The notes beneath the pieces are model-generated. The model did no database searches, was not told the origin of the DNA, and worked only from the letters and a program-made list of their open reading frames with translations. A program made the translations under genes and the position numbers. A stretch of DNA of 64,000 nt from a virus (Duplodnaviria > Caudoviricetes): IMG/VR virus record IMGVR_UViG_3300027991_000002, positions 11,208-75,207 of that record. The stretch is one strand, 5' to 3'. Below, piece by piece: positions 124-18,855 of this stretch. How positions within the stretch are numbered: the first letter of the stretch is position 1; every line of letters starts with the position of its first letter.

Positions 124-294
124 ATGGGATTTTTCTCAAACATAATTTCCGCCACCGTCAAAGTCGCGCTAACCCCTGTGGCGGTAGTGAAAGACGTGGT
201 GAACATCGCCACAGGCGAAGAAGCGGATGCTACAAAAGACTTACTCAAATCTGCGGGTGAAGACGCGGAAGAAGCAATGGAGGATATAACATGA
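124..294 (+). CDS. small phage protein (56 aa)
   Basis: Translated by hand, not in ORF track: MGFFSNIISATVKVALTPVAVVKDVVNIATGEEADATKDLL...; ATGA overlap with next gene. Confidence 0.75.
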   Translation: MGFFSNIISATVKVALTPVAVVKDVVNIATGEEADATKDLLKSAGEDAEEAMEDIT

Positions 295-482
295 AAAGAC
301 CTGTCCTCTCCCTGAGAAAAAAAATAATTTATCTCTACAACAACCTGATTCTCCGTGCCTGCTACGAACTCGCTCACATGAAAATAATCTCTAACAAAAC
401 TTTTGCCAAATGGTCGGACTCTCCGCGTGAAATAAAATGCAATCTCCAAACTTTCGGCAACACAACAAGAAAATTTAACTGA
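291..482 (+). CDS. hypothetical protein (63 aa)
   Basis: ORF track; translationally coupled to upstream ORF. Confidence 0.55.
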   Translation: MKRPVLSLRKKIIYLYNNLILRACYELAHMKIISNKTFAKWSDSPREIKCNLQTFGNTTRKFN

Positions 483-496
483 CCACATAAAAGAAC

Positions 497-718
497 ATGG
501 AAGAAACCCGAAACGAAATTCAAGATGGACAAGAAGTAAAACCGCAGTTTGAAACCGAACTCGCGGCACTCATCAACAAATTCTCCAAAGAGAACGGCAG
601 CAACACACCCGATTGGATTTTGGCGGAATACCTCCAACGATGCCTCGACAACTTTAACTACACTTCTCGCGCTCGTGAAAAATGGTACGGAAAAAGTTTA
701 TCAATAGGCGGAAACTAA
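497..718 (+). CDS. conserved small phage protein (SNTPDWILAEYL motif)
   Basis: Motif ENGSNTPDWILAEYL recalled from many phage hypothetical proteins. Confidence 0.75.
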   Translation: MEETRNEIQDGQEVKPQFETELAALINKFSKENGSNTPDWILAEYLQRCLDNFNYTSRAREKWYGKSLSIGGN

Positions 719-737
719 TTCCTGACAAATCCCCAAG

Positions 738-962
738 ATGAAAGACCCAATGACCGAAAAGGAAATCTACGATACCAACATAGCCGTCCTCGAACGCATC
801 ATCCTCACTTTCGCCAAGCAAATGAGAGACGATGGCGCGGCAATCTTCAACGATGAAACACTAAAACTCTACGTCAAACAATTTGTCGGCAACTTAGATA
901 ACACAGAAATAAATTACCCCCCTAACCACAATCACCAACACAGTAAGTGTCTTTTAAAATAG
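738..962 (+). CDS. hypothetical protein (74 aa)
   Basis: ORF track; same composition as neighbours. Confidence 0.6.
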   Translation: MKDPMTEKEIYDTNIAVLERIILTFAKQMRDDGAAIFNDETLKLYVKQFVGNLDNTEINYPPNHNHQHSKCLLK

Positions 963-1482
963 GTAAGTAAGTTGATGATAAAAGTAAGGGCTTACACCCC
1001 ATTTTTCGGGGCATACCTTTTCACTCAGGGAAATTCACTTTTAAACAACCCATCCCCCTTACTGAAATCTGACTTTTGAATTCTGAAAACAGAAATTAAA
1101 TATCTGTTGCAGGATGACAACAGGACTGCATTACGTTGCGAATATCAAGCGCAAGAGATAAGAGAATGATAATGTGTGTTTGAACGGGTGAAACGTTATT
1201 ACGCAATGTTATTCTATTGGCTTGCCGATGTGAACATGACAACATAAAAAAGTGTTTACCCGTATTTCTGAGCATATTTGCCACTATTTGCCTATGTTCA
1301 ACACGGAAATAATAATAAATTCGATGGCTAAAAGTGATTTGAAAAAGACCGCGAAAACAGTTTTTAGTTTGTGGTTAGGGTGAAAAGGGGTTGACCTCTT
1401 GTTAAATAAATTTGTTTTTAGTGTTAATTAGTTTTTACTTGTCAATATACAGGAGAATAAAAATAGTTTGTAATTTTGTCGT

Positions 1483-1668
1483 ATGACACGGGGGGCGATA
1501 GTACGTGAAAGATTGATAAATAATAGGCGTTTTGTGCCTTTGAGTGATTATGCGCGGCTTTGTCGTATCAGTAGGCAGGGGGCGCGACACCGGCTTTTAA
1601 ACAGTTTGCCAAAGGATAAAGTTTATCAGGATGATTTTTCGGCTTTGTGGTGGGTTTGTGTTGAGTAG
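1483..1668 (+). CDS. putative HTH DNA-binding protein (61 aa)
   Basis: LSDYARLCRISRQGARHRL resembles a helix-turn-helix. Confidence 0.45.
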   Translation: MTRGAIVRERLINNRRFVPLSDYARLCRISRQGARHRLLNSLPKDKVYQDDFSALWWVCVE

Positions 1669-1718
1669 TTCCTGACTATTGGCGGGCGTCTAATAAAGTT
1701 TTTAGCTCTGTCAATCTG

Positions 1719-1919
1719 TTAAGGTAGGGCGCGAAAGTTATCTGGGTTGCGTTCGCAGTAGCTTAGATGGCTGTTGATGAATTGGCGGACGTTGGTAATT
1801 TTTGTTTCCTTGTTTAGCTGTATTTGTTCGGGCAGGTTTGCCGCCTCGAAGTATGCGCGAAGGTCGTTAAGGGCTGCCGCGTTTTTTGGTTGTGGTTCAG
1901 GTGAACTTTCGTTACTCAT
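1719..1919 (-). CDS. small Bacteroidota hypothetical protein (DUF6965-like)
   Basis: LRAYFEAANLPEQIQLNKETKITNVRQFINSHL resembles a small Bacteroidota family; divergent from 2132. Confidence 0.5.
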   Translation of the reverse strand: MSNESSPEPQPKNAAALNDLRAYFEAANLPEQIQLNKETKITNVRQFINSHLSYCERNPDNFRALP

Positions 1920-2131
1920 CTGCTTATTATTTCAGTGTGTGAAAGTAAACAAAAGTTAGTCAATATGCAAGACATTTTTAATATTTATTTTTTATTTTCT
2001 CCTCTGTAAATGATAGTTTGGTATGATGTTTGTTTTAATCTTTTAACATTAAAATTTAAACTTTGAAAGATACAATAATATATTAGAATCGTCTATTGTT
2101 TTGCGTCCACAAATGAACGTAATTTGCACCC

Positions 2132-2281
2132 ATGAAACAAACAACTAAAAACGACCTGATGACAATAGCAGAATACGCAGCTACTAAAGGAGTAAGCGTA
2201 CAAACTATATATAATTGGATTGAGAAGAAAGATTTGAAAACGCGCAAGGTTGGAAAAATCACCTTAGTAATAGTGAACTAA
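2132..2281 (+). CDS. excisionase-like / MerR-type HTH protein (49 aa)
   Basis: Translated by hand: MKQTTKNDLMTIAEYAATKGVSVQTIYNWIEKKDLKTRKVGKITLVIVN. Confidence 0.75.
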   Translation: MKQTTKNDLMTIAEYAATKGVSVQTIYNWIEKKDLKTRKVGKITLVIVN

Positions 2282-2328
2282 TTTTTTTGTCTTATATATT
2301 GAAACTTTTAAACTTACAAACAGTAAAC

Positions 2329-2484
2329 ATGAAAAAGAAATATTCAACAGCCATTATGTTAGCTTGCTTAGGACTAACAAAAAATACATTCAGGAGCCAT
2401 GCCGATTTAGTACAGGCATTTAAGAAACAGCAAGCGAAGATACAAAAGGCGCAAGCATCTATAAATAAAATCTTTAATAACTGA
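2329..2484 (+). CDS. hypothetical protein (51 aa)
   Basis: ATG at 2329 inside track ORF 2287-2484, preceded by A-rich initiation region. Confidence 0.55.
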   Translation: MKKKYSTAIMLACLGLTKNTFRSHADLVQAFKKQQAKIQKAQASINKIFNN

Positions 2485-2535
2485 CAAGCCGAACACAGTC
2501 AACCAAAGTAGGCAACAAATTTAAACTACTACAAA

Positions 2536-2814
2536 ATGAAAACTATTACAACAAATCTTTACTCATTCGATGAACTGAGCGAAGAAGCAAAAAACAAGGC
2601 AATCATTGAACAGATTAACTTTGAGATTGAAGTAGCGGACGAAAATAGCCCGTTTATTCCAGTCTTTGAAGAAATGGAACGGATGCACACCCCGTGGTTC
2701 ACTGCTGCAACAATTTTTCACACACCGGAATATAAAAACATCATCATTGAAAATCTAAGAGTGAATGAATATACATTCCTCTCTGATGGTACAATGCAAA
2801 ACTCCCGGTCGTAG
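2536..2814 (+). CDS. early phage protein (92 aa)
   Basis: MKTITTNLYSFDELSEEAKNKAI N-terminus typical of phage early proteins. Confidence 0.75.
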   Translation: MKTITTNLYSFDELSEEAKNKAIIEQINFEIEVADENSPFIPVFEEMERMHTPWFTAATIFHTPEYKNIIIENLRVNEYTFLSDGTMQNSRS

Positions 2815-2950
2815 TAGTACGGGCGGCATCCCTTGTCGCGTCTTACTTAACTGATAAGACAGGCGTAACGGGCAACCGGAGCAAGGGAGCAAAAAATACC
2901 TGCCAGCTTCAACAGGAACAAATGAAGCGTAACTATTAACACACAACACA

Positions 2951-3547
2951 ATGAACAACACACAAACAGCAGTAAAAGAAATTGAATTTACCCGCATCAA
3001 CAATGATGTAAACGAAAATCCGCGCTTTGTCTGCCATTTCCTGAACTTTATTAACGAGCAAGACCGTAAGACCTTTTTCGGGTTTGAACTCGGTTACGAC
3101 CTTGCTATTGCGAAATCCCGCGAACTGGGAGGGCGGAAATTCCATAACAGGCAGTACGGAGGCGGAATAGTATTCCAAATGTATGACGGTGAAATTCCCG
3201 CAATGACGGAACGCGTCCGCGAAATTCAGAGCCGTACTATTAAATTCAAAACAGAATGGACGGACAAAGATTTTCGCAAAATGGAACGGGCAATAGCTAA
3301 ACACTTTAGCGGGCAAACCACCACAACGCGGGACGGGGTTTTCTATCTTGGCTCATTCAAAGAAATAGATAGCAACTTCGGGCTGGCTTACACTTCTTCG
3401 GGCGTTCATGCTTGCTACGGAATATGCAACACCGAAGTAAAATATAATGAGAAATACAACTATCAATTTTTCATCATGTCAGAGGACGGCAAACCGTATG
3501 CAGAACTTTGGGACACAAACGAAAACGAAAAATACATTCAACTATAA
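2951..3547 (+). CDS. early phage protein (198 aa)
   Basis: N-terminal RINNDVNENPRFVCHF...GGRKFHNRQYGGGIVFQ motif recalled from widespread phage proteins, plus a C-terminal extension. Confidence 0.8.
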   Translation: MNNTQTAVKEIEFTRINNDVNENPRFVCHFLNFINEQDRKTFFGFELGYDLAIAKSRELGGRKFHNRQYGGGIVFQMYDGEIPAMTERVREIQSRTIKFKTEWTDKDFRKMERAIAKHFSGQTTTTRDGVFYLGSFKEIDSNFGLAYTSSGVHACYGICNTEVKYNEKYNYQFFIMSEDGKPYAELWDTNENEKYIQL

Positions 3548-3648
3548 AAATGTGTGTTGCCTGTCAAACAACCCCGTAAGGTTTAAGATAGGAAGCAAAG
3601 AACGAACAAAAACAAAGTATAAATTTAACTATCAAAAATGAACAGACA

Positions 3649-4008
3649 ATGAAAAAAGAAACTCAAAATAATCAGCCGTTACCCTCGTACATTCTTAACC
3701 TTTTCGCCAAGTGCGAAGCACTGAAAGCGGAAGAAAGATTAACTACAACTTTTGGCGCGAATCATAGCTACGATATTTTTCGCTACGAAGGAAAATTTTT
3801 AATCCAACAAACGGGCAACTATTGGAAACGTGATGCAATTTATGAAAGTTTCAAATTTGCAACCGCAAAAGAACTTAATCAAAAACTGCGTACTATTCCG
3901 TATTACGATTGGTACGCTAAAAATCATTTCACAGGTAAAACGCAACACATGGATAATATTTCTAACTTCTGTAATGCGTTCAAACTTGAAACTGTTGAAA
4001 CTATCTAA
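3649..4008 (+). CDS. hypothetical protein (119 aa)
   Basis: ORF track; A-rich start context. Confidence 0.7.
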   Translation: MKKETQNNQPLPSYILNLFAKCEALKAEERLTTTFGANHSYDIFRYEGKFLIQQTGNYWKRDAIYESFKFATAKELNQKLRTIPYYDWYAKNHFTGKTQHMDNISNFCNAFKLETVETI

Positions 4009-4058
4009 CCCTCATCAGCGAACACAAAAAACAAACTGATTTAAAACTGAAAAAAACA

Positions 4059-4286
4059 ATGACAACCCGAAAGATGATTTTTAAGAATCAAGCAGAACTC
4101 GACAACTTCTTGGAAAACCACATTGCGCGAGCCGGAACTATTGAGCCGTTCTTTGATGGCAAGCTGGTAGTGAATATGATTTGCGTAGGATGTGAGCATA
4201 AGCATCACCCCGTTAATTCTGCCGTTCATTTTGACAGCGTTAATATAGATGATGAGTATAATGACTTCATAATGCCTCTGCAATGA
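4059..4286 (+). CDS. hypothetical protein (75 aa)
   Basis: ORF track; CxxC motif. Confidence 0.65.
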   Translation: MTTRKMIFKNQAELDNFLENHIARAGTIEPFFDGKLVVNMICVGCEHKHHPVNSAVHFDSVNIDDEYNDFIMPLQ

Positions 4287-4494
4287 GATACAGGCAACAG
4301 TATGAAGGCGAATGGGTTTACCCTCGAAGAAAAAGATATTTTATGCGCTGTTGCGATTGTGGCTTGGTTCATATTATTAATTTCAAACTTGTAAAACGCG
4401 GCAATGGAAAAGCAATTTTATTTCAGGCGTTCCGGCAACCAAAAAAGAAAAAATAAATTTCAATCTATCTAACTAATCCCTAAACACACCACAC

Positions 4495-4734
4495 ATGGAA
4501 CACACAACATTTATTGAAACTAACAGCCACCGCGCTCACCAGCAGTTTTTAAATACCAACGTGCCGTTTGACCGCCACACGGATATAAAAACTAAGCACC
4601 CGAAAAATAAAAATTGGTTTATATGTACGCGGGTGATTTATGAAATTCCGCGCGAAGCCCTTTACAGAGTGAAGCCGATAAAAGGGATAACAATATTTAA
4701 AAATAATCCTATCAAAGAACATAACAGACCGTAA
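4495..4734 (+). CDS. hypothetical protein (79 aa)
   Basis: ORF track. Confidence 0.6.
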   Translation: MEHTTFIETNSHRAHQQFLNTNVPFDRHTDIKTKHPKNKNWFICTRVIYEIPREALYRVKPIKGITIFKNNPIKEHNRP

Positions 4735-4966
4735 TCTGTAACCCGAAAATGTTTTTATGTGCCGTAACACATTAACATTTTTACCTCGATAAACTTACAA
4801 ATAAATTCTGAAAATAAGATGAAACAAACGCACCAATTAACTCCAAGTGATTTACGCCCCGTCCTTCCATCCATAGCGAGGCAAAACAAACTCAGACTCA
4901 ATAGACCAGTTGAGTATTTGAAAGCAGTACGGATATTTATTAAAAGCATTAAACAAAACTAAAACT

Positions 4967-5443
4967 ATGAAAATCAAAATCGAAGATTACAAAGGGCAAG
5001 AAATTTTTTACGAGGAAGATTACGACAAATTTACTTGCGACATTTCTATTGAGGATAAATATAAAAACGCAAAACGCGGTTCGCTTATTGATATGAGAAA
5101 AGAAATAGATGCTTTCATAAAACTAAATGTAAACTTTGTCCCGTTTAAAGCGATACGCAATCGATGGAGCGATTTTGAAATAGTAGAATTTGAATCTATC
5201 CGTACTGATGGAAAGTTTTTAGCGCGGAGAGAAAAAGCGTCAAACCGCGACCAAATTGGCAAAGATGAACAGAAAGAATATTTTGAATATAACCCTAAGT
5301 TAGTTGATGAATATAGGGAAGCGGAACGAATAAAAGATGAGGCGTATAAGGTTTATGAGAAAACAAAAAAAGATATTATTTCAAGATTGAAACCGCAAAG
5401 TTTTGCCAAGTATGACAGCATTATTAATAAGAACAAACAATGA
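4967..5443 (+). CDS. hypothetical protein (158 aa)
   Basis: ORF track; AAAACT-ATG start context. Confidence 0.8.
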   Translation: MKIKIEDYKGQEIFYEEDYDKFTCDISIEDKYKNAKRGSLIDMRKEIDAFIKLNVNFVPFKAIRNRWSDFEIVEFESIRTDGKFLARREKASNRDQIGKDEQKEYFEYNPKLVDEYREAERIKDEAYKVYEKTKKDIISRLKPQSFAKYDSIINKNKQ

Positions 5444-5820
5444 AAACAAAAATCCTAATCCTGTTATTTGCTTTTGCAAGTTGCAAGAAAGATTTGCCCG
5501 AACCAATGGAAACAGAACCTGAAAACCTGATGTCGGTACAAGCGACACCAGCTACGTTCCACCTCGACTTCCAAACCGCAGGAGTAAACATAACAAACTT
5601 ACCCGCCACAAGCGTTCAGACGTTAGATAACAACGGAGATGTAGGTAAAATGATAACATTCACTCAGGACAATTTCATCGTCTGTTTTTGCCGTCTTTAT
5701 TCAGGGGAGGTAATTCAGATAACAGGGAGTATAAATTCGCATCCGTTTGTGGTTATTAACGGAGCTATGAATATTTGTCACGGCAATCAACAACAATCAT
5801 TTACATATAAACTTTACTAA
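5440..5820 (+). CDS. putative lipoprotein (126 aa)
   Basis: MKTKILILLFAFAS-C-KKD type II signal peptide. Confidence 0.7.
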   Translation: MKTKILILLFAFASCKKDLPEPMETEPENLMSVQATPATFHLDFQTAGVNITNLPATSVQTLDNNGDVGKMITFTQDNFIVCFCRLYSGEVIQITGSINSHPFVVINGAMNICHGNQQQSFTYKLY

Positions 5821-7577: not shown

Positions 7578-7817
7578 ATGGGTAGACAACTCACAAAAGA
7601 AAAGCAGGACGAAATCGCCTCCTTATATGAAAGAATAATGACAGGGGAAAAGCTGACAAGCAAACAGGTAAACGGCATAGCCGACAAACTCAACATCTTA
7701 AAAGGACGCGGATATAAATTCTCCTCTGAAAGAAATTCGCACACGGTACTCAAGACGTATTTTTGTACGGAGGTGGATGTGGAGATGAATAAACAAATAA
7801 GTAAAAATCGCAAATAA
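7578..7817 (+). CDS. hypothetical, possibly DNA-binding protein (79 aa)
   Basis: ORF track; basic. Confidence 0.6.
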   Translation: MGRQLTKEKQDEIASLYERIMTGEKLTSKQVNGIADKLNILKGRGYKFSSERNSHTVLKTYFCTEVDVEMNKQISKNRK

Positions 7818-7861
7818 TATTTCTTGCATATAGATAAACATTTACTATATTTGCACTCACA
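7816..7861 (+). promoter_or_regulatory. Bacteroidota-type promoter (copy 2)
   Basis: AATATTTCTTGCAT, TATATTTG (7846-7853, perfect TAnnTTTG) and CACTCACA. Confidence 0.7.
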
Positions 7862-7872
7862 TTTTAATCCAC

Positions 7873-8106
7873 ATGGCAAAGCAAAAAAACATCGCAGAGC
7901 ATAAATTAAAAATGCAGAAACTCTCGGAAGAACTGAAAGGGAATTTGCCACGCGTGGCAATGGAAGCGAAAGTAACAATTACCACCGTCATGCGCGTACT
8001 TAATAACGAGTATGTTAATTGGGAAGTAATCCGCGCAGCCATTAAAGTCAGAAACAAAATCATTCAGGAAAAACTGCAACAACAAAAACTGCTTTCAAAA
8101 ATATGA
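7873..8106 (+). CDS. Cro-like HTH protein (77 aa)
   Basis: LPRVAMEAKVTITTVMRVLNN helix-turn-helix pattern; first gene after promoter. Confidence 0.6.
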   Translation: MAKQKNIAEHKLKMQKLSEELKGNLPRVAMEAKVTITTVMRVLNNEYVNWEVIRAAIKVRNKIIQEKLQQQKLLSKI

Positions 8107-8285
8107 CCTACTCCCGCGCCCTGCTGACAAACTACTTAGCCGAACATCAGAAATGGTACAAGATAGGCGAAGCTCTGCTAAACTCCAACACAGACCGCAA
8201 AACAAAATCCGAAGTAAGAAAAGTTTTGAAAGTAAAAGAGAAGATAATTGCTGATTTGAAAACTTCTATAAAGAAACTGAAATAA
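8103..8285 (+). CDS. hypothetical protein (60 aa)
   Basis: ORF track; ATGA overlap. Confidence 0.65.
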   Translation: MTYSRALLTNYLAEHQKWYKIGEALLNSNTDRKTKSEVRKVLKVKEKIIADLKTSIKKLK

Positions 8286-8491
8286 TGGACACAACTACTC
8301 CCGCTTTTCCGTTACCACAGGAAAGCGATAATACAGAGAGACAAGGTTTAACCAAACGCGAATACTTTGCGGGACTTGCTATGCAGGGGATGTTAGCATA
8401 CGATAACCGACATGATATATCGGGATGGGATGCGATTGCAAAAGACGCGGTTAAATGTGCGGATGAACTTTTAAAAGAACTCGAACAATGA
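8285..8491 (+). CDS. conserved phage protein (GLTKREYFA family)
   Basis: PAFP...GLTKREYFAGLAMQGML signature. Confidence 0.85.
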   Translation: MDTTTPAFPLPQESDNTERQGLTKREYFAGLAMQGMLAYDNRHDISGWDAIAKDAVKCADELLKELEQ

Positions 8492-8706
8492 AAGCCACAG
8501 GCAAGTACGAATCCGAATGTTGTAGTAAACCGGCAGTAAACGTAAAACTGCTAATCAACGAGCATTACGGCTGGTGCGTAGTTTGCGGGAAGTATGGAAG
8601 AGTATTCGACACCGGACTAAGCCAACCCCTCACCCACGCAGAACTCATAGACGGATTTAAAAATAAAAAAGATGTGCACCCTGACACAAATCATAAACAA
8701 CTATAA
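8488..8706 (+). CDS. hypothetical Zn-ribbon-like protein (72 aa)
   Basis: SECC and CVVCG motifs. Confidence 0.55.
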   Translation: MKATGKYESECCSKPAVNVKLLINEHYGWCVVCGKYGRVFDTGLSQPLTHAELIDGFKNKKDVHPDTNHKQL

Positions 8707-12148: not shown

Positions 12149-12238
12149 ATAGAACGAAGAAGCACTAACGAATGTAAAATTTTTGCCATTGAAAACAGAC
12201 AGATTAAAAATTTTATTTCGCTTTGTGCTGTGTTATGC
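12149..12238. repeat. attC-like site A (90 bp)
   Basis: AAC gaaga AGCACTAACGAATGTAAAATTTTT ... AAAAATTTTATTTCGCTTTGTGCT gt GTT. Confidence 0.75.
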
Positions 12239-12324
12239 GAGTGCGCATGGATTTTATGCGGTGGGGTTCGTTCTTTTTTCTGTTTTCAATTTTTAGCGTT
12301 GGCATTAATTAAACAATCATAAAT

Positions 12325-12741
12325 ATGAAAAGGCAACAAACAATAGTATCGGAAAAAGAAATCCTGAAACTCGGTGGAGTTGATAAGGGATATAAATTTG
12401 AACGCACCAAGCATGAACATGGGGATAGAGAAAAAATATTCTATAAGCAATGGAAGAAGGAAAATAAGCAGTTACGATGGCTAAACTTCGGGCAGGGAAT
12501 ATTGCAGGATTTATTTGCCATTACTGGTAATAATCCTTTCAACTTTATGAGGGGAGGATTGATAGGTTGGAAATTAATAATCAACAGGAGGGATAGATAC
12601 ATTGTGGCAACAGTGATGCAATGGCTCGGAACAAATTGCGGTTGGTGCTGGCTTGAAGAAACACTTAGGAAGTGCGGGTACAGATTAGAAAAAATTGAGC
12701 GGGAGGAAAAAATTGAAAACAGAAAAAAGAATGTCGCATAA
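12325..12741 (+). CDS. cassette cargo, hypothetical protein (138 aa)
   Basis: Stop TAA lies inside TCGCATAAC of site B; VATVMQWLGTNCG motif. Confidence 0.8.
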   Translation: MKRQQTIVSEKEILKLGGVDKGYKFERTKHEHGDREKIFYKQWKKENKQLRWLNFGQGILQDLFAITGNNPFNFMRGGLIGWKLIINRRDRYIVATVMQWLGTNCGWCWLEETLRKCGYRLEKIEREEKIENRKKNVA

Positions 12742-12793
12742 CGGCAAACGCTTTATGCCGTTATTTTCAATGGCATTAAAGCGTATGTTCTAT
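12736..12793. repeat. attC-like site B (58 bp)
   Basis: AAC ggcaa ACGCTTT-ATGCC loop GGCATTAAAGCGT at GTT; one extrahelical base. Confidence 0.85.
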
Positions 12794-12818
12794 TTAGGTT
12801 TTTAAAATTCTTTGAGCG

Positions 12819-13031
12819 ATGGCAAACAAAATATGCAGAATAACAATATTAGCTTTCATGTTCGGAGATATACCGAAAGGAATTGAGAACGGATATGATG
12901 ATTGGGACTTAGAAAACGGAATACAATATTGTGAAGAATTGATGCGCTATGAAGGAATGACACATGAACCGATGGATAAGTTTGAGTTGAAGAAATATAT
13001 TGAATGGGCAAAACAGAAATTGAAAGAGTGA
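12819..13031 (+). CDS. cassette cargo, hypothetical protein (70 aa)
   Basis: ORF track; between sites B and C. Confidence 0.7.
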   Translation: MANKICRITILAFMFGDIPKGIENGYDDWDLENGIQYCEELMRYEGMTHEPMDKFELKKYIEWAKQKLKE

Positions 13032-13054
13032 GTGTGGCAATTTTAAAAACTTGA

Positions 13055-13391
13055 ATAGAACGTTGCTCGGATTGAAGAATGTAAATTAAAATTATAGCGA
13101 TGCACAAGAACAGAACAGCAAACGGATTAAGGTTGCAAGAGCAACATAACCAACGTTACAAGAAAATGTTGATAGGAAAAAAAGCGAAGGACGGGCGAAC
13201 GGTTATTAACACAGAATGGATTGGAAACAGCACATACGGATGTGTTCGATTATTTTTCGATAATCAAACCGATGATTTATGTAGTAGTACAATGGGATTT
13301 AAACCGACAAGAGAGGATTTTACAGACAGGTACGGAATTACATGGTGAGCGATGGCAATTTTAATTTATTTCTTTCAATCTGGTGTTAGTT
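13055..13391. repeat. attC-like site C (337 bp, gene in loop)
   Basis: GATTGAA-GAATGTAAATTAAAATT pairs with AATTTTAATTTATTTCTTTCAATC (13358-13380). Confidence 0.8.
13100..13348 (+). CDS. hypothetical protein inside attC C loop (82 aa)
   Basis: ORF track; bracketed by AGCGATG motifs. Confidence 0.7.
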   Translation: MHKNRTANGLRLQEQHNQRYKKMLIGKKAKDGRTVINTEWIGNSTYGCVRLFFDNQTDDLCSSTMGFKPTREDFTDRYGITW

Positions 13392-13421
13392 TTAGTTTTT
13401 AACAGGCAAACAAAATAGAAA

Positions 13422-13613
13422 ATGGAAAAGTTATCAGACAAAGCAGAAAAGAGAATTAAGAAAATCTATCCTGATGCGAGGGCAGAGAGGGATGGCGCAA
13501 TGTTCTTTATAGTAACTGACTTACTTAAAGGAGAGGACAGAACTTTAGGTGGTGGATTTAGCAGAGATGGCGCGTGGTGTAGCGCGGGTTGCTCTGTGCC
13601 TGTTAAAAATTGA
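13422..13613 (+). CDS. cassette cargo, hypothetical protein (63 aa)
   Basis: ORF track; ends in the outer arm of site D. Confidence 0.7.
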   Translation: MEKLSDKAEKRIKKIYPDARAERDGAMFFIVTDLLKGEDRTLGGGFSRDGAWCSAGCSVPVKN

Positions 13614-13959
13614 AACTAACGAGGAAGGATTTGTGAAGTAAAATTTTCGATTAAAAACTATAACCTTTAAAAACAGAAAAGCGATGGAAGTAAAAGGATT
13701 TTATATCAGAAGCAATGGCGACCCTTCGGTTGGTATATTCTCTGCTCAATGGGAATTGCGAAATGACTTCGTATTTGACGACATAGAAGATTTGGAATAT
13801 TTCAGGTCGGGGCTTGCGCGTTTGCTCGGTGAGCATTGCGGGGAGAGGTGCTATGTGCAAACTTTTGAGGAGTGGGCTGAACAAATTAAATTAGAAGAAA
13901 AAATGTGTAGTGACGCACAGAAGGAAGAAAATTTTATTTCATCAAATCCTGTGTTGTCG
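13614..13959. repeat. attC-like site D (346 bp)
   Basis: GGATTTG-TGAAGTAAAATTTT pairs with AAAATTTTATTTCATCAAATCC (13928-13949), then tgt GTT at 13953. Confidence 0.8.
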
Positions 13960-14046
13960 GATAGTTTGCCTTTTGATTTAGCAAGTCATCCTGACACAGA
14001 AGCTGACGGACATGTATTCTGCGGTAAATGTGGAAAAGAAAAGTGA
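13684..14046 (+). CDS. hypothetical protein reading through the attC D arm (120 aa)
   Basis: Peptide ENFISSNPVLSDSL is the attC arm; C-terminal CxxC. Confidence 0.7.
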   Translation: MEVKGFYIRSNGDPSVGIFSAQWELRNDFVFDDIEDLEYFRSGLARLLGEHCGERCYVQTFEEWAEQIKLEEKMCSDAQKEENFISSNPVLSDSLPFDLASHPDTEADGHVFCGKCGKEK

Positions 14047-14056
14047 GGCAAATTTC

Positions 14057-14588
14057 CGACAACGGGAAGGGGATTGAAGAATGTATTTTAATTTTTTAGC
14101 ATGGGCAAACTAATGGTAACACCAATATTCCAAAACGAAGCGTTCGCGTTCATCGAACAACACCACAGGCATCATAGAAAGCCAGTAGGCAGCGTGTTTC
14201 AGATTGCAGTGAGCGAGGGTGAGCGTGTGGCAGGGGTGGCGGTTGTTGGCAGACCAAACGGACGAAAACAGCAGGACGGATTTACATTAGAAGTTACACG
14301 GCTATGCACAGACGGAACTAAAAATGCCTGCTCAATGCTTTATGCAGCTTGCTGGAGAGCAGCCAAAGAATTAGGTTATCGAAAACTGATTACATACATA
14401 CTGAACACTGAGCCGGGGACATCATTAAAAGCAAGCGGGTGGAGATGCGTTGGGGAGCGCGGTGGCGGGAGTTGGAACGTACCGAGCCGCCCCCGTGTTG
14501 ACAAACATCCGTTGCAGAAAAAATTGTTATTTGAAATCGAGTAGCGCGATGGGAAAATTAAAATATTTCTTTCAATCCCATGTTGTTG
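14057..14588. repeat. attC-like site E (532 bp, gene in loop)
   Basis: GGGATTGAA-GAATGTATTTTAATTTT pairs with AAAATTAAAATATTTCTTTCAATCCC, then at GTT at 14582. Confidence 0.8.
14101..14544 (+). CDS. XF1762-family (Mom-like GNAT-fold) protein
   Basis: FIEQHHRHH, GVAVVGRP, TLEVTRLCTDGTKNACSMLY, LITYIL, GTSLKASGW motifs. Confidence 0.8.
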   Translation: MGKLMVTPIFQNEAFAFIEQHHRHHRKPVGSVFQIAVSEGERVAGVAVVGRPNGRKQQDGFTLEVTRLCTDGTKNACSMLYAACWRAAKELGYRKLITYILNTEPGTSLKASGWRCVGERGGGSWNVPSRPRVDKHPLQKKLLFEIE

Positions 14589-14621
14589 GCAGCGTAGCTG
14601 AGTTTGCTTTTCGCAAATTGC

Positions 14622-14831
14622 CAACAACGTCACGCAGGATTTATGAAGGATTTTTTACGATTTTAAAACCAACAAATATGAAAACACCAAAAGAAATTTT
14701 AGAAGGAAAACAAGCATTCAAAGATTTCCTGTATAAAGCACCCGACTGGATTAGGGAAGACATTATTGCAGCAATGATGGAATACGCATTGGAGCAAGTA
14801 AAAAATCTTTCATTAAATCCTGTTGTTGTTG
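14622..14831. repeat. attC-like site F (210 bp)
   Basis: AGGATTT-ATGAAGGATTTTTTAC pairs with GTAAAAAATCTTTCATTAAATCCT, then gtt GTT at 14825. Confidence 0.8.
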
Positions 14832-14938
14832 GGCGCAGCGAACAGTTAAAATCTGACTTGTACAAATTCAGGGATATGTATTGTCAAAATATTGACTTAG
14901 CTACCATAGATGAATATGTTGACGGCTTAGGATTTTAA
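14678..14938 (+). CDS. hypothetical protein reading through the attC F arm (86 aa)
   Basis: Start moved to ATG 14678 (A-rich context); VKNLSLNPVVVGRSEQL is encoded by the arm. Confidence 0.65.
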   Translation: MKTPKEILEGKQAFKDFLYKAPDWIREDIIAAMMEYALEQVKNLSLNPVVVGRSEQLKSDLYKFRDMYCQNIDLATIDEYVDGLGF

Positions 14939-14942
14939 TTGC

Positions 14943-15073
14943 CAACAACGTTCATCGGATTTATTCTCGTTGCATTAAATGATAAAAACTTAAACCATAA
15001 ATAAAACTCATTATGAAAAACAAACCTACGATTAAAAAGAAAGCCAGCAATGGAATGAAATCCGTTGTTCATG
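14943..15073. repeat. attC-like site G (131 bp)
   Basis: GGATTT-ATTCTCGTTGC pairs with GCAATGGAATGAAATCC, then gtt GTT at 15067. Confidence 0.7.
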
Positions 15074-15333
15074 GCAGTGCGGATAAATGGTCAAAAATTA
15101 AGTGGAGCAAAAAAGTTTTGCAAAAAGCGCAGGAAAATCATATCTGGTTGAACGCTTTTGATTGCGTAAGACCGACACCTGCATTCTGCGAAAGTCTTGG
15201 TAGGTCAATCATCAATAAATTACGGGATGAAGAAAATTTAATCCCGATGAGTGGCATTACATCGGATGTTGAAGCGATGCGAGAGATTGCAAAACTTACC
15301 CCGATAATGTACATGAGCATTAACAAGAGCTAA
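15013..15333 (+). CDS. hypothetical protein reading through the attC G arm (106 aa)
   Basis: ASNGMKSVVHGSA is encoded by the arm. Confidence 0.65.
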   Translation: MKNKPTIKKKASNGMKSVVHGSADKWSKIKWSKKVLQKAQENHIWLNAFDCVRPTPAFCESLGRSIINKLRDEENLIPMSGITSDVEAMREIAKLTPIMYMSINKS

Positions 15334-15347
15334 GATGTGAGCATTGC

Positions 15348-15404
15348 CATGAACGGTAGAGATTGTTGCCGTTAATTTCAATGGCATACAATCTAATGTT
15401 ATCT
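15348..15404. repeat. attC-like site H (57 bp)
   Basis: AGATTGT-TGCC gttaatttcaat GGCATACAATCT; loop nearly identical to that of site B. Confidence 0.85.
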
Positions 15405-15436
15405 GCCGTTTTGGATTAACTAAATAAATATAAATT

Positions 15437-15742
15437 ATGAAAGCAAAAGAGTATGCACAAAGGGTAACAAGTACAGAAAATGTTCAAGATGCAATGACTG
15501 AGCTTGGCAAATGCGGAAAAGATTTTTTCAACGAATTTATCGCAATGAGAAAATCACGTAACATAAAAACCGATGATGGATTATTAACGCTGGTGAAAGA
15601 GTTCGATAATAAATTCAGAACATTTTCTGTACTTGTGGATTCACACTACAAAGGGATGGTTAAACCAAATGGATTCATTGAACTGCTTCGGGAGTTTGTT
15701 CCTGTACTTGCTAATGAATATGAAAGGAAAAATGGCAGATAA
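15437..15742 (+). CDS. cassette cargo, hypothetical protein (101 aa)
   Basis: Stop TAA lies inside GCAGATAAC of site I. Confidence 0.75.
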   Translation: MKAKEYAQRVTSTENVQDAMTELGKCGKDFFNEFIAMRKSRNIKTDDGLLTLVKEFDNKFRTFSVLVDSHYKGMVKPNGFIELLREFVPVLANEYERKNGR

Positions 15743-16571
15743 CGGTTACGGCTTTAAGCAGTGGGGATTATTAGCACAAATGTTCAATCGAAGCGATAAA
15801 AAAAATAAAGAAAAATTTTTAGGGAGGCATTTTTAATTTAATCATTTAATCATAAATAAAACAAAATGGAAAAAGTAACAAACACAGCAAAGAACCCACG
15901 ACTTGAATGGTTGATGGGTGGAAATCCTAATGCTATTGAAGCACAGGAAGTGCAAGGACAAAAGGAACTTGTGAAATCATCACAACTACCAGCGAAAGTA
16001 AATTCGCCAAGAGGAGTGAACATTGAGGAGCAATACGCCTTGATGGGAATAAAAGTAATTGGCAAAACCAAAGGAGATGAATTATTCCTTGATGTGGAAT
16101 TGCCAAATGGGTGGAAGAAGGAAGCAACCGACCATTCAATGTGGAATAAATTGGTTGATGATAAAGGAAGGGAAAGGGCAAGTTTCTTTTACAAAGCTGC
16201 ATTTTATGACCGAGATGCTTTTGTGAATTTTAGCACACGGTATAATTGGAATGCCAATTACGAGGATAAGGACAATGTGAGCTACTTTGTAAAAGATAAC
16301 TCCATAGGTGAAATTGTATTTGAAACAGAAAAGATGAGTAAAGATGTAAAACAGCCGAACTACTTTAAAATACAGGATGAGTTACAAAACCAATGTAAAC
16401 AATTTCTGAAAGACAAGTTCCCTGAACACGAAAACATAAATGCTTATTGGAATTAAATCATTTAATCATTAAGAGCGTGGGCAAAAATTTTTCTTTATTT
16501 TTTTTCGTTCATATCAGCACGAACTTAAATATGGAGCGATACACCCCATTGCTTTAAAGCCGATGTTATGC
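15737..16571. repeat. attC-like site I (835 bp, gene in loop)
   Basis: CGGCTTT-AAGCAGTGGGG / CCCCATTGCTTTAAAGCCG plus AAAAAAAATAAAGAAAAATTTTT / AAAAATTTTTCTTTATTTTTTTT. Confidence 0.85.
15866..16456 (+). CDS. conserved phage protein inside attC I loop (196 aa)
   Basis: NPNAIEAQEVQGQKELV, LPNGWKKEATDHSMW, GRERASFFYKAAFYDRDA motifs. Confidence 0.85.
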   Translation: MEKVTNTAKNPRLEWLMGGNPNAIEAQEVQGQKELVKSSQLPAKVNSPRGVNIEEQYALMGIKVIGKTKGDELFLDVELPNGWKKEATDHSMWNKLVDDKGRERASFFYKAAFYDRDAFVNFSTRYNWNANYEDKDNVSYFVKDNSIGEIVFETEKMSKDVKQPNYFKIQDELQNQCKQFLKDKFPEHENINAYWN

Positions 16572-16733
16572 GAAGTTGCCAATACCAAATTCAAAAAGAC
16601 AAAAAACTCATTGGCAATTTTGCATAACGTTCGAGGATAAACGAAGTGCATGAGTAACCGAAAAATTAACTGAACAGCAAGTAAGAAATTTTAATAAAAA
16701 TATTTTTAGGGAGGGAATTTAAAAAACAACATT

Positions 16734-16892
16734 ATGAAAATAAACTTTGATGTGAACCTGCCGGATTGGTTTGTAATAACCGGACTTACTGTTTTTACAG
16801 TTTGGATGATTCTTGACATAATAAAAAACTGGCTCAAACTTATCATTTGGAATTATGAGAGGAAAATTAAAAAAATGGAAAACGAAAAGTAA
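16734..16892 (+). CDS. small membrane protein inside attC J loop (52 aa)
   Basis: Translated by hand; one hydrophobic helix; TAATG coupling to next gene. Confidence 0.6.
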   Translation: MKINFDVNLPDWFVITGLTVFTVWMILDIIKNWLKLIIWNYERKIKKMENEK

Positions 16893-17317
16893 TGGCAATC
16901 TTAAACTATACAACCTCCATTGATTCTGAAAAGACAATCGGAGAGATTCAAAAATGCTTAGTGAAGCACGGGGCAATGAAAATCACCACTGATTATCAGA
17001 ACGGGATTCCATGCGCTGTTACTTTCTGCCTAATCATCAAAGAGAATATGGTTGGGTTTGCATTGCCAGCAAATTATTCAGGCGTTCTCAGGGCAATGAA
17101 GCGAGATGGAAAAGTTCCGCGCTCAAAATGCACAGAGGAGCAGGCAATAAAAGTTTCATGGAGAATAGTGAAAGACTGGGTTGAAGCGCAGATGGCAATA
17201 GTTGAAGCTGAACTTGCACAGATGGCGGAAGTGTTTTTGCCGTATGCAGTTACAAAGAATGGAAACACTCTTTGGAAACAGATGGAAGGAAACGGAATGT
17301 TATTACTTAACTCTTAA
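16892..17317 (+). CDS. conserved phage protein inside attC J loop (141 aa)
   Basis: NYTTSI..EKTIGEIQ..L..HGA, VSWRIVKDWVEAQMA, EVFLPY motifs. Confidence 0.85.
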   Translation: MAILNYTTSIDSEKTIGEIQKCLVKHGAMKITTDYQNGIPCAVTFCLIIKENMVGFALPANYSGVLRAMKRDGKVPRSKCTEEQAIKVSWRIVKDWVEAQMAIVEAELAQMAEVFLPYAVTKNGNTLWKQMEGNGMLLLNS

Positions 17318-17485
17318 CCTTTTTACAATTTGAAAAATTGTGATGAGCGTAGGCAAAATATTTTTATTAAAATTTCTCTAACCGTAATTGACAGTACAGA
17401 TGGAAGCATTTCGTTTATCCTTTGTTATCAGATGAAAAATTATCCCTTTTGAGCGCGGGATGCTCGTAATTTAATAATTACAAAA

Positions 17486-17683
17486 ATGAAAACATGGGAA
17501 TATAAAATTAATAGCGTAAATGAATATGATGCTTTTGAAAATGTTGGCGGCTCGGTTGCCGAAAGAATTTTAGATGGAGCGTCAAAAGACGGATGGGAAT
17601 TAGTGTCTGTTGTCGGAATAAACACAATGGTAATTTTTTACTTTAAAAGAGAATTAAATAATGGAGGTGCGGTGGCGGGATAA
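17486..17683 (+). CDS. DUF4177-like small protein (cassette cargo)
   Basis: MKTWEYK ... DGWELVSV ... FYFKRE signature. Confidence 0.8.
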   Translation: MKTWEYKINSVNEYDAFENVGGSVAERILDGASKDGWELVSVVGINTMVIFYFKRELNNGGAVAG

Positions 17684-17692
17684 TTTTTTTTC

Positions 17693-17820
17693 TGATAACG
17701 GATGAAGATAAAAGAAGCAGCCCTAAATAGAATGTTCAGCGGGTACGTAACCGATAGGGTAACTGAACTTAGGCAGACCTCCGATTTTGCTCGGCTGTTT
17801 CTTTTTATCTTGTGTTGTGT
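17693..17820. repeat. attC-like site K (128 bp)
   Basis: AAC ggatg AAGATAAAA-GAAGCAGCC pairs with GGCTGTTTCTTTTTATCTT gt GTT. Confidence 0.85.
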
Positions 17821-17878
17821 GAGAGCATAGGGATTTCAGGCGATGGGCAGTTTTTAACTTAAAATAATTTTAAAGCGT

Positions 17879-18193
17879 ATGGCAAAGATTTATTTCAGCA
17901 AATACAATGATGAGGAAGTGGCTTATACATTGGACTATTGGAAAACTTACATGGAAGAAAACCTCATTGAAGAAATGACATTGTTTGAAGGCAAGCGAAT
18001 GACAGGCGAGGGCTATTTCTATTGTAAAGAATACTTTGAAGTTGGATTAGCGAGAGAGTCATGTGGAAAGATATGCGAGGGATATAAGCCGAACAATGGC
18101 AAGAATGGCAGATGCAAACATTATGGATATTGCTATGAGCCAACAGATAAAAGGTTGGTGTTGCAAGCGGGCGGAAAAATTATTTTAAGTTAA
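17879..18193 (+). CDS. cassette cargo, Cys-rich protein (104 aa)
   Basis: FYCKEY, SCGKICEGYKPNNGKNGRCKHYGYCY. Confidence 0.75.
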   Translation: MAKIYFSKYNDEEVAYTLDYWKTYMEENLIEEMTLFEGKRMTGEGYFYCKEYFEVGLARESCGKICEGYKPNNGKNGRCKHYGYCYEPTDKRLVLQAGGKIILS

Positions 18194-18200
18194 AAATTTC

Positions 18201-18260
18201 ACACAACAAATATATGTATTTTTCTCTTACAACTATTTGAAACTTAAACCATAACACCAT
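18201..18260 (-). other. attI-like site
   Basis: Last AAC (18205-18207) has no hairpin partner. On the minus strand: GTTATGG (18255-18249), GTTGTAA (18233-18227), then GTTGTGTGA, directly beside the integrase-domain gene. Confidence 0.6.
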
Positions 18261-18285: not shown

Positions 18286-18855
18286 ATGAATAACGCTCTC
18301 ATTTATGCTTTAGCTTGTCCGGAAACAGGTCAAATAAAATATGTTGGCAAAACAAATCATTCATTAAAAAGAAGATTGCAAAATCATATAAATAACAAGA
18401 GGTCAAAAAGCAGGTGCTCTTTTTGGATTAGAGAATTAAAAAGTAAAAATATCTATCCTGAAATAATATTACTTGAAACAGTAATTGATGGGCTATGGAG
18501 ATTTAGAGAATCAGAATGGATAAAAAACTTTGGCAGAGATAATTTATTAAATGAAAACGCAGGCGGTGGAGGAATGGGGACATCTAAGATAAATTATGTT
18601 TTTTCTTTTTCCGAATCTCTTTCACAATATTCTGAAAACACTAAGAGAAACTATTTAAGCATAGTAAAAATATTCTTACATGAACATGGATGCGTTTCAA
18701 CATCAGCAGTTATTATTAATAAAAAAATGATTGAAAATTATATGATGAGATTTAAGAATAGACACAGTTATAATCAAACCTTGTCTGCATTAAAAAAATT
18801 CTTTTTATTTTTAGGTCAACCAAGAAAATTAAATGCAATTAAATATTGGTATTAA
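18286..18855 (+). CDS. GIY-YIG nuclease fused to a tyrosine-integrase N-terminal (SAM-like) domain; no catalytic integrase domain
   Basis: IYALACPETGQIKYVGKT..RLQNH..ESEWI..LLNENAGGGG, then YSENTKRNYLSIVKIFL...SYNQTLSALKKFF (compare IntI STQNQALSALLF). Confidence 0.7.
   Translation: MNNALIYALACPETGQIKYVGKTNHSLKRRLQNHINNKRSKSRCSFWIRELKSKNIYPEIILLETVIDGLWRFRESEWIKNFGRDNLLNENAGGGGMGTSKINYVFSFSESLSQYSENTKRNYLSIVKIFLHEHGCVSTSAVIINKKMIENYMMRFKNRHSYNQTLSALKKFFLFLGQPRKLNAIKYWY

Follow-up and report, generated by a model that had tools for sequence, protein, structure and literature searches.

Can a recombination site of the integron type carry a whole gene inside its own hairpin? The question is raised by an array of small genes in a phage genome (Duplodnaviria; Caudoviricetes) that we analyzed over a 64,000-nt stretch (hereafter the window), corresponding to bases 11208-75207 of the 75,207-bp viral record IMGVR_UViG_3300027991_000002; the record has direct terminal repeats of 127 bp. 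The right two thirds of the window hold large minus-strand genes, and the array sits among small plus-strand genes. A first-pass annotation had described sites in this array that resemble attC, the recombination site of integron cassettes, and that enclose genes where attC has a non-coding loop. Our analysis indicates that the region is probably the core of a phage-borne, integron-like gene-cassette array and that the giant, gene-bearing sites are part of it.

12232-18207, plus strand: integron-like array of GTT...AAC units alternating with AAC...GTT sites, with about 14 small genes

The array is built of two alternating kinds of unit, and each kind is a hairpin that is either empty or gene-bearing. 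Units of the first kind start with GTT and end with AAC; the second kind, here called a site, is the interval from an AAC to the next GTT. In the GTT-started units the first 8-27 nt pair with the last nucleotides of the same unit and not with the end of its neighbor, the footprint of a crossover at the triplet. Two of these units are empty:

14582-14628, plus strand: empty GTT...AAC hairpin unit, 47 nt, after site E; its 5' arm can also pair with 14941-14949
16565-16628, plus strand: empty GTT...AAC hairpin unit, 64 nt, after site I

Three of the sites are short:

12736-12793, plus strand: short site A, 58 bp, the reference architecture
15348-15404, plus strand: short site G, 57 bp; over the apical 29 nt it matches a site of G001, an unrelated phage, at 97% identity
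17693-17820, plus strand: short site K, 128 bp, with a branched terminal structure

Six are giant. We located the boxes by script and measured each span from the AAC box (R'') to the GTT box (R'); open reading frames are abbreviated ORFs:

13055-13391, plus strand: site C, 337 bp; arms 13068-13093 / 13357-13382; loop ORF 13100-13348 (82 aa)
13614-13959, plus strand: site D, 346 bp; arms 13626-13648 / 13927-13950; ORF 13684-14046 begins in the loop, and its coding sequence takes in the 3' arm
14057-14588, plus strand: site E, 532 bp; arms 14070-14095 / 14554-14579, homologous to those of C; loop ORF 14101-14544 (147 aa, XF1762 family)
14622-14831, plus strand: site F, 210 bp; arms 14635-14658 / 14798-14822, of the site D family; ORF 14678-14938 begins in the loop
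15737-16571, plus strand: site I, 835 bp; outer arms 15749-15766 / 16544-16562, inner arms 15798-15820 / 16483-16505; ORF 15866-16456 (196 aa)
16622-17430, plus strand: site J, 809 bp; outer arms 16634-16649 / 17406-17421, inner arms 16684-16706 / 17355-17377; ORFs 16734-16892 (52 aa) and 16892-17317 (141 aa)

All six spans are identical in length to those in the first-pass annotation, and the ORF list agrees with it that C, E, I, and J enclose complete ORFs and that D and F enclose gene starts. In six of the nine sites, then, the terminal region consists of 139-662 nt of DNA instead of a loop of 6-60 nt. Sites C, E, and I each accommodate a complete gene there, J a pair of genes, and D and F the initial two thirds of one. 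The 147-aa protein of site E matches the XF1762 model NF045478 at 199.7 bits (cut-off 50), with a weaker match to the Mom family. The inner repeat reported for site J is perfect (23/23), as is that of site I. The count of paired bases in site I is slightly lower than had been described: 58 paired positions across arms of about 80 nt (DNA parameters) instead of about 70 bp. Five sites (A, B, G, H, and K) had been placed in the classical attC size range of about 57-141 bp; A, G, and K do fall within it, B and H could not be identified, and C, D, E, F, I, and J exceed it.

Short and giant sites share the same base. We folded 13 short sites from four arrays with DNA parameters, and the 5' spacer measures 5-6 nt and the 3' spacer 2-3 nt in 12 of them and in all nine giant sites tested. 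Most short sites carry a single bulged base on the 3' arm (plus strand), some 7-9 bp up from the spacer. The same kind of bulge, at 7-8 bp, is found in giant sites C, D, E, F, and I and in a giant site of the phage G001 (G001:1045); site J has none. AAC and GTT triplets stand at the ends of an imperfect palindrome in all nine window sites. When giant sites were folded whole, their closing arms were present in the minimum-energy structure with mean pair probabilities of 0.74-1.0 (RNA or DNA parameters). On these predicted folds, the view that the giant sites belong to one family with the short sites A, G, and K holds. An attC cluster without an integrase (CALIN) is defined by two or more attC hits of the IntegronFinder covariance model with no neighboring intI; by structure alone, the three short sites would qualify as one. 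Rfam searches at permissive thresholds gave no credible match in the array of the window or in that of G001. That standard attC models would miss the giant sites, as had been proposed, is plausible, since known attC terminal structures range from 3 nt to a branched structure of about 100 nt (PMC2727003; 10.1101/030866).

Chance can be dismissed as the origin of these arms. Across the whole 75-kb genome, a scan for inverted repeats (at least 16 nt, at least 85% complementary, 30-2000 nt apart) found 15 pairs, ten of them within the 6 kb from 12271 to 18196; nine of these ten bracket one ORF (two ORFs in one case) and the tenth lies inside an ORF. With the distance set to 100-1500 nt and the other thresholds unchanged, 12200-18250 holds ten inverted repeats, against a mean of 0.47 and a maximum of three in 300 dinucleotide shuffles, and no shuffle exceeded 19 matched bases. 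A perfect 19-bp inverted repeat (15467-15485 / 15618-15636) lies wholly within ORF 15437-15742, at no unit boundary.

What enzyme might act on such an array? A loop motif common to sites A and G led to G001, a 74.7-kb phage that is unrelated to the window phage apart from two short protein matches. G001 has the same array architecture at 200-5600 and, directly downstream, a gene for a 394-aa fusion of a GIY-YIG domain, a SAM-like core-binding domain and a tyrosine-recombinase catalytic domain. The fusion family comprises about 15 full-length relatives, which by our reading of the alignment conserve residues at the positions of both catalytic sets. Every relative with readable upstream DNA (L128, L132, and L134) has, as in G001, such an array directly upstream of the fusion gene. 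In the window a shortened gene stands at the array end:

18286-18855, plus strand: shortened array-end gene encoding a GIY-YIG domain (conserved motifs) and an integrase-type SAM-like core-binding domain, without a catalytic domain

Including it, five loci tie the arrays to this recombinase family, the other four lying on viral or metagenome contigs. The recombinase part is nearest to XerA/XerC-type enzymes. In comparison with VchIntIA (2A3V), residues 208-245, which form the integron-specific insert, have no counterpart in a fusion relative, and a full-length relative matches TIGR02249 at 131.8 bits, below the cut-off of 265. As to the enzyme, the earlier integron framing needs correcting: it is a GIY-YIG and Xer-like fusion without the IntI insert, not an integron integrase. 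As side observations, the domain layout of 18286-18855 is that of a site-directed nuclease, and fusion proteins P0007-P0009, P0011, P0012, P0014, and P0015 share a conserved C-terminal extension of about 70 aa (alignment A1, columns ~400-485).

The same arms are found around different contents. Sites C and E have similar arms (83% and 79% identity) around unrelated genes, and a common arm family encloses unrelated genes in D and F. Arms of the same family as the outer arms of I and J also close G001:499 and G001:5210, both of which bear genes, and, around loops of just 5-25 nt, G001:1893, L128:594, and L128:2998; members of this family show compensatory base changes relative to one another. 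Two different L132 ORFs are framed by a leader and arms 89-92% identical to those of unit 17424-17699. The first-pass annotation had proposed a search for the same arms with alternative loop content, and such cases thus occur both within the window and across G001, L128, and L132. Homologues of the loop genes on other viral contigs present the converse picture: none of 15 loci with the 196-aa gene has bracketing arms, and 6 of 80 loci with an XF1762 homologue have repeats, these being only 12-14 nt, a size expected by chance. Arms that travel with the loop genes were rejected on this ground, the homologue contexts showing only background or low-complexity repeats. Given arms with varied loops and homologues that are unbracketed elsewhere, the arms belong to the scaffold and not to the genes. 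Separately, the ORFs 13684-14046 and 14678-14938, which are unrelated, share a 40-nt segment of 75% identity (13913-13952 / 14784-14823) that is the translated 3' arm plus GTT box of both sites D and F.

Which strand folds, and where would it be cut? Arm mismatches across six arrays comprise 98 G.T and 14 A.C on the plus strand, whereas in repeats elsewhere in the same genomes the two are about 1:1, and by our reading of the arm list phages share several of the wobble positions. In classical attC sites (PMC2727003) a 3'-arm bulge is characteristic of the strand that recombines, the bottom one; here it is found on the plus strand. A third line of evidence comes from multicopy elements. G001 contains a 144-nt GC-rich element in four 100%-identical copies, the identity ending exactly at AA/ and AA/C (the slash marks the proposed crossover), and L128 contains an element of other sequence:

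G001 (L107) 1745-1895, 3185-3335, 3768-3915, and 4765-4910, with a partial copy at 1-130: 144-nt element inserted at AA/C of box sequences
L128 455-593, 2855-2997, and 3278-3420: three copies of an element of roughly 140 nt, inserted at a comparable point

The G001 element has no Rfam match. It is predicted to fold into a branched, site-like hairpin with a three-way junction followed by an empty box hairpin (z = -5.4), and the L128 element has the same predicted two-domain fold (z = -9.3), which suggests that the two represent a conserved structured non-coding cassette. Together, the G.T bias, the 3'-arm bulge and the element ends at AA/C point to the plus (coding) strand as the folded strand and to AA/C as the crossover. 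The polarity assumed by the first-pass annotation is therefore reversed, the plus strand having the classical bottom-strand geometry. With the crossover at AA/C on the plus strand, a cassette consists of a site and its downstream body, and the recombinase gene lies at the insertion end.

Cut at every AA/C, the array falls into ten cassettes, seven of which hold a single gene. The gene lies in the site loop in cassettes E and I, each then followed by an empty GTT...AAC hairpin (47 or 64 nt). It lies in the body after A, after G, after K and in one body that has no site before it. In D and F the gene spans loop and body, and two cassettes (C and J) have genes in both places. The earlier description of two cargo bays per cassette is a fair one structurally, in view of the shared base architecture, the arms kept in the fold and the arm families with varied loops. 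Its companion idea, that the inner repeats compensate specifically for a large loop, fails on the observation that the same repeats bracket body genes: long perfect inner repeats also flank the body genes at 12325-12741 and 17879-18193.

A further feature of the gene-bearing units is a G-rich motif, [AT]GCGNNGG, which stands just inside both arms of most of them in direct orientation and sometimes includes the start codon. Across the six arrays it occurs 66 times on the plus strand and twice on the minus strand, at 7-12 times background; in the window, 12257-18074 has 16 copies on the plus strand (e.g., 12295, 12815, 13348, 13680, 16474, 17346, and 17452) and none on the minus strand. In the L128 element, the empty hairpin has motif-like sequence at both ends of its loop and looks like an unloaded holder.

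We propose a mechanism that builds on what is observed: the anatomy of the arrays and the fact that it recurs, the difference between the strands, and the crossover position at which the multicopy elements end. Each site, made of an AAC box, an asymmetric unpaired spacer, a stem with one 3'-arm bulge, a variable terminal region and a GTT box, would fold once the plus strand is single-stranded. The GIY-YIG and Xer-like tyrosine recombinase would bind two duplex boxes and cut the plus strand at AA/C. A cassette would extend from one AA/C to the next, and the excised circle would be a dumbbell with the crossover site at its center. Cargo could then occupy the lobe past the box stem (body) or the one past the site stem (loop), and inner repeats of 21-29 bp, often perfect, would zip large lobes shut. 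On this mechanism, the giant-loop sites would be active recombination substrates.

Several observations weigh against an integron-like array of this kind. The heptamer consensus RYYYAAC / GTTRRRY is not kept, the triplets alone being invariant (ATAGAAC, CGACAAC, GTTCTAT, GTTGTCG). The fusion recombinase is without the IntI insert, and no tyrosine-recombinase catalytic domain was found anywhere in the genome of the window phage. No cassette polymorphism was seen: exact-protein look-ups for two loop genes gave three contigs of about 75 kb, and the one second assembly whose context was compared is 100% identical over 16.6 kb. A long terminal structure cuts integron recombination by up to four logs in replicating DNA, an effect not seen for sites delivered as single strands (PMC8946536). 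That inner repeats and the plus-strand G-rich motif also bracket body genes would not follow from an attC-only model, and both the plus-strand G.T bias and the motif suit a role in RNA equally well.

Such a role would have the stems acting in polycistronic mRNA, through RNase III-type processing or stabilization or by insulating the translation of each cistron, with recombination proceeding only via the short hairpins and the AAC/GTT boxes. We regard this as unlikely, yet much of the strand asymmetry would fit it. The wobble mismatches (G.U in RNA) lie nearly all on the sense strand (98 vs. 14), the plus-strand duplex is the more stable in 17 of 20 units with RNA parameters, and the G-rich motif keeps strictly to one strand. 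Inner repeats that are perfect over 21-29 bp, near the minimal size of an RNase III substrate, stand 0-45 nt from ORFs, around body genes too, and stems of 21-29 bp are predicted on the sense strand (RNase III processing stems are double-stranded RNA of about 20 bp or more). Promoter- and terminator-like sites are not enriched, so read-through transcription is plausible, and the stems are intact despite the shortened recombinase gene. Parallels exist in the stems that enclose 16S and 23S rRNA and in the RNase III sites of the T7 early genes, which delimit products on a polycistronic transcript. These resemble the window stems in being about two helical turns long, long-range or intergenic, and in delimiting single products, but they lack AAC/GTT boxes and any link to recombinases; phages are not known to enclose each mRNA cistron in a stem. 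What speaks against the mRNA role is that it leaves unaccounted for the spacer and bulge geometry of the giant sites, which is exactly that of the short ones, as well as the AAC/GTT alternation, the complementarity of unit ends and the linkage to a recombinase. Moreover, G.T is also the best-tolerated mismatch in a plus-strand DNA hairpin, so the bias does not discriminate between folding as RNA and folding as DNA.

The giant sites could otherwise be dead relics, formed where genes landed in short sites or cassettes fused across them, with arms that persist because the events are recent. The window phage itself lends this some color: the catalytic domain has been lost, and the D and F ORFs run through the 3' arm and GTT box into the next unit, as fusion predicts. 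Classical integrons, too, disfavor long terminal structures (PMC8946536). With the catalytic half of the recombinase gene gone, the window array is probably frozen unless an enzyme acts in trans, and it may be inert. Giant sites recur, however, in G001, whose recombinase is intact and which contains an element that multiplied recently. Over 21-24 bp several arms pair without a mismatch, and the mismatches that do occur in arms are nearly all wobbles, unlike random decay, at positions that by our reading of the arms are conserved across phages. On balance, we consider relic status quite improbable.

A slimmer chance still attaches to two-tier modularity, in which genes would be swapped from start to stop at [AT]GCGNNGG copies by short-homology or nuclease-stimulated recombination, the hairpin frames being reusable and the distinction between loop and body irrelevant. 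The pair C/E, and unit 17424-17699 with the two L132 units, are indeed alike from box to start codon and again after the stop, the ORF alone differing; the motif abuts both arms in most gene-bearing units, motif-like sequences mark the loop ends of the empty hairpin in the L128 element, and the recombinase is fused to a GIY-YIG nuclease domain. Nevertheless, no gene is common to any pair of arrays and no swap breakpoint has been mapped, and by our reading motif copies within a unit are no more alike than those of different units. The all-against-all ORF comparison of the six arrays returned no cassette gene in common except one weak pair, so breakpoints could not be mapped via homologous genes.

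The remaining candidates fall quickly. Intrinsic terminators and sigma-70 promoters do not explain the hairpins, as neither is enriched (promoters 20 vs. 24.8 expected). T4-type promoter-stem-loop (PeSL) cassettes repeat the same promoter and stem-loop between genes, and the window array has no promoter enrichment and arms that are unit-specific. A shared dif-like site (about 28 bp, two 11-bp arms, 6-bp spacer) was rejected because every arm pair differs and direct-repeat families are small.

Returning to the integron-like array, how far does the likeness to known systems extend? As in integrons, the sites are imperfect palindromes with AAC/GTT triplets, an unpaired central spacer, a bulge on one arm (PMC2727003) and a variable terminal structure; each cassette begins with sequence that can pair with its own far box; the small genes point in the same direction and are mostly unknown; and arm sequence varies from site to site, as it does among attC sites recognized by structure. 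Unlike those of integrons, the giant sites have terminal regions of 139-662 nt with genes instead of non-coding ones of 3 to about 100 nt (PMC2727003; 10.1101/030866), and box stems of up to 23-27 bp instead of 7-11 bp. The genes lie on the strand with bottom-strand geometry, the recombinase gene follows the array, downstream and in the same orientation, and the linked enzyme has a GIY-YIG domain and no IntI insert. Vibrio cholerae repeats (VCRs) have a large, branched terminal part, like site K and the first hairpin of the G001 element, but they are well under 150 bp and contain no ORF, unlike the giant sites.

Hairpin recombination and inverted-site bracketing also have precedents outside integrons. 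At the attP of CTX phage, XerCD recombines a hairpin folded from single-stranded phage DNA; the use of a Xer-type recombinase on a hairpin from one phage strand is shared, whereas CTX has a single integration site in the host chromosome, no cassette array and no loop genes. The pdif modules of Acinetobacter plasmids consist of genes between inverted recombinase sites, chained with alternating site orientation. Bracketing by inverted sites and chained modules are found in the window array too, but pdif sites share one 28-bp sequence, whereas the window arm pairs all differ and have only 3-nt cores in common.

Attachment of such arrays to phages is itself not new, since attC clusters lacking an integrase were reported in 2023 in virulent phages, including a Polaribacter phage, and recombined with IntI1 (Qi et al., 2023; PMC9892861). 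Our full-text literature search found no paper on genes inside an attC loop or on a GIY-YIG-recombinase fusion tied to cassettes. A more specific proposal, which we advance tentatively and hold to be possible though doubtful, is that the arrays form an undescribed phage integron-like class. It would use a GIY-YIG/Xer-like recombinase without the IntI insert and a recombinogenic coding strand; the loop-cargo hairpin would be zipped by a long perfect repeat, with a pair of single-stranded G-rich motifs marking the base of the loop, and the nuclease would resolve the half-exchanged junction or load the loops. If so, such a role of the nuclease would bear on how cassettes are born. Should sites with a gene in the loop still work, the rule that long terminal structures cripple folding would have to be qualified for replicating phages, with their abundant single-stranded DNA. 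The empty hairpins suggest one route to cassette birth, the insertion of a gene into an empty hairpin. Search models and cassette definitions rest on attC being a short non-coding hairpin, and surveys with short-site models would undercount these cassettes if gene-in-loop sites still work. For lytic phages, the arrays would provide a site-specific gene-shuffling device, with window cargo that includes an XF1762/Mom-like protein; methyltransferases are among the phage-borne cassettes already described (Qi et al., PMC9892861). The nuclease-recombinase fusion with its arrays would represent a new recombinase design.

Further loci extend the picture. A protein search with the window GIY-YIG gene gave no relative, and one with the flanking 345-aa gene gave one relative. 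G002, a distant relative of the window phage, has a different array at the same genome position. Its proteins are 35-60% identical to those of the window phage, none of its cassette genes occurs in the window, and GTTATG-type bracketed ORFs lie downstream of its homologue of the 345-aa gene (L005 13542-15242; G002 116-2210 and 7639-8594). The nearest cellular homologues of the fusion recombinase are in Bacteroidota, and some adjoin more conventional repeat arrays. Upstream of one of these, in a Saprospiraceae metagenome-assembled genome (MAG; L141 5958-6885), near-identical hairpin sites with 21-nt arms and 113-nt loops recur with a period of about 390 bp, with ORFs of 58-59 aa between them.

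Finally, a similar stretch of about 20 nt lies between the last AAC and the recombinase gene in G001 (L107 ~5625-5689) and L128 (~3418-3483), the corresponding window sequence being only loosely similar; we regard it as a candidate for an attI-like site of primary insertion. G001 also has genes for a second, XerD-like tyrosine recombinase and an N6/N4 DNA methyltransferase (L114 1117-2861; G001 72481-74225), which lie immediately upstream of its array when the genome ends are joined.

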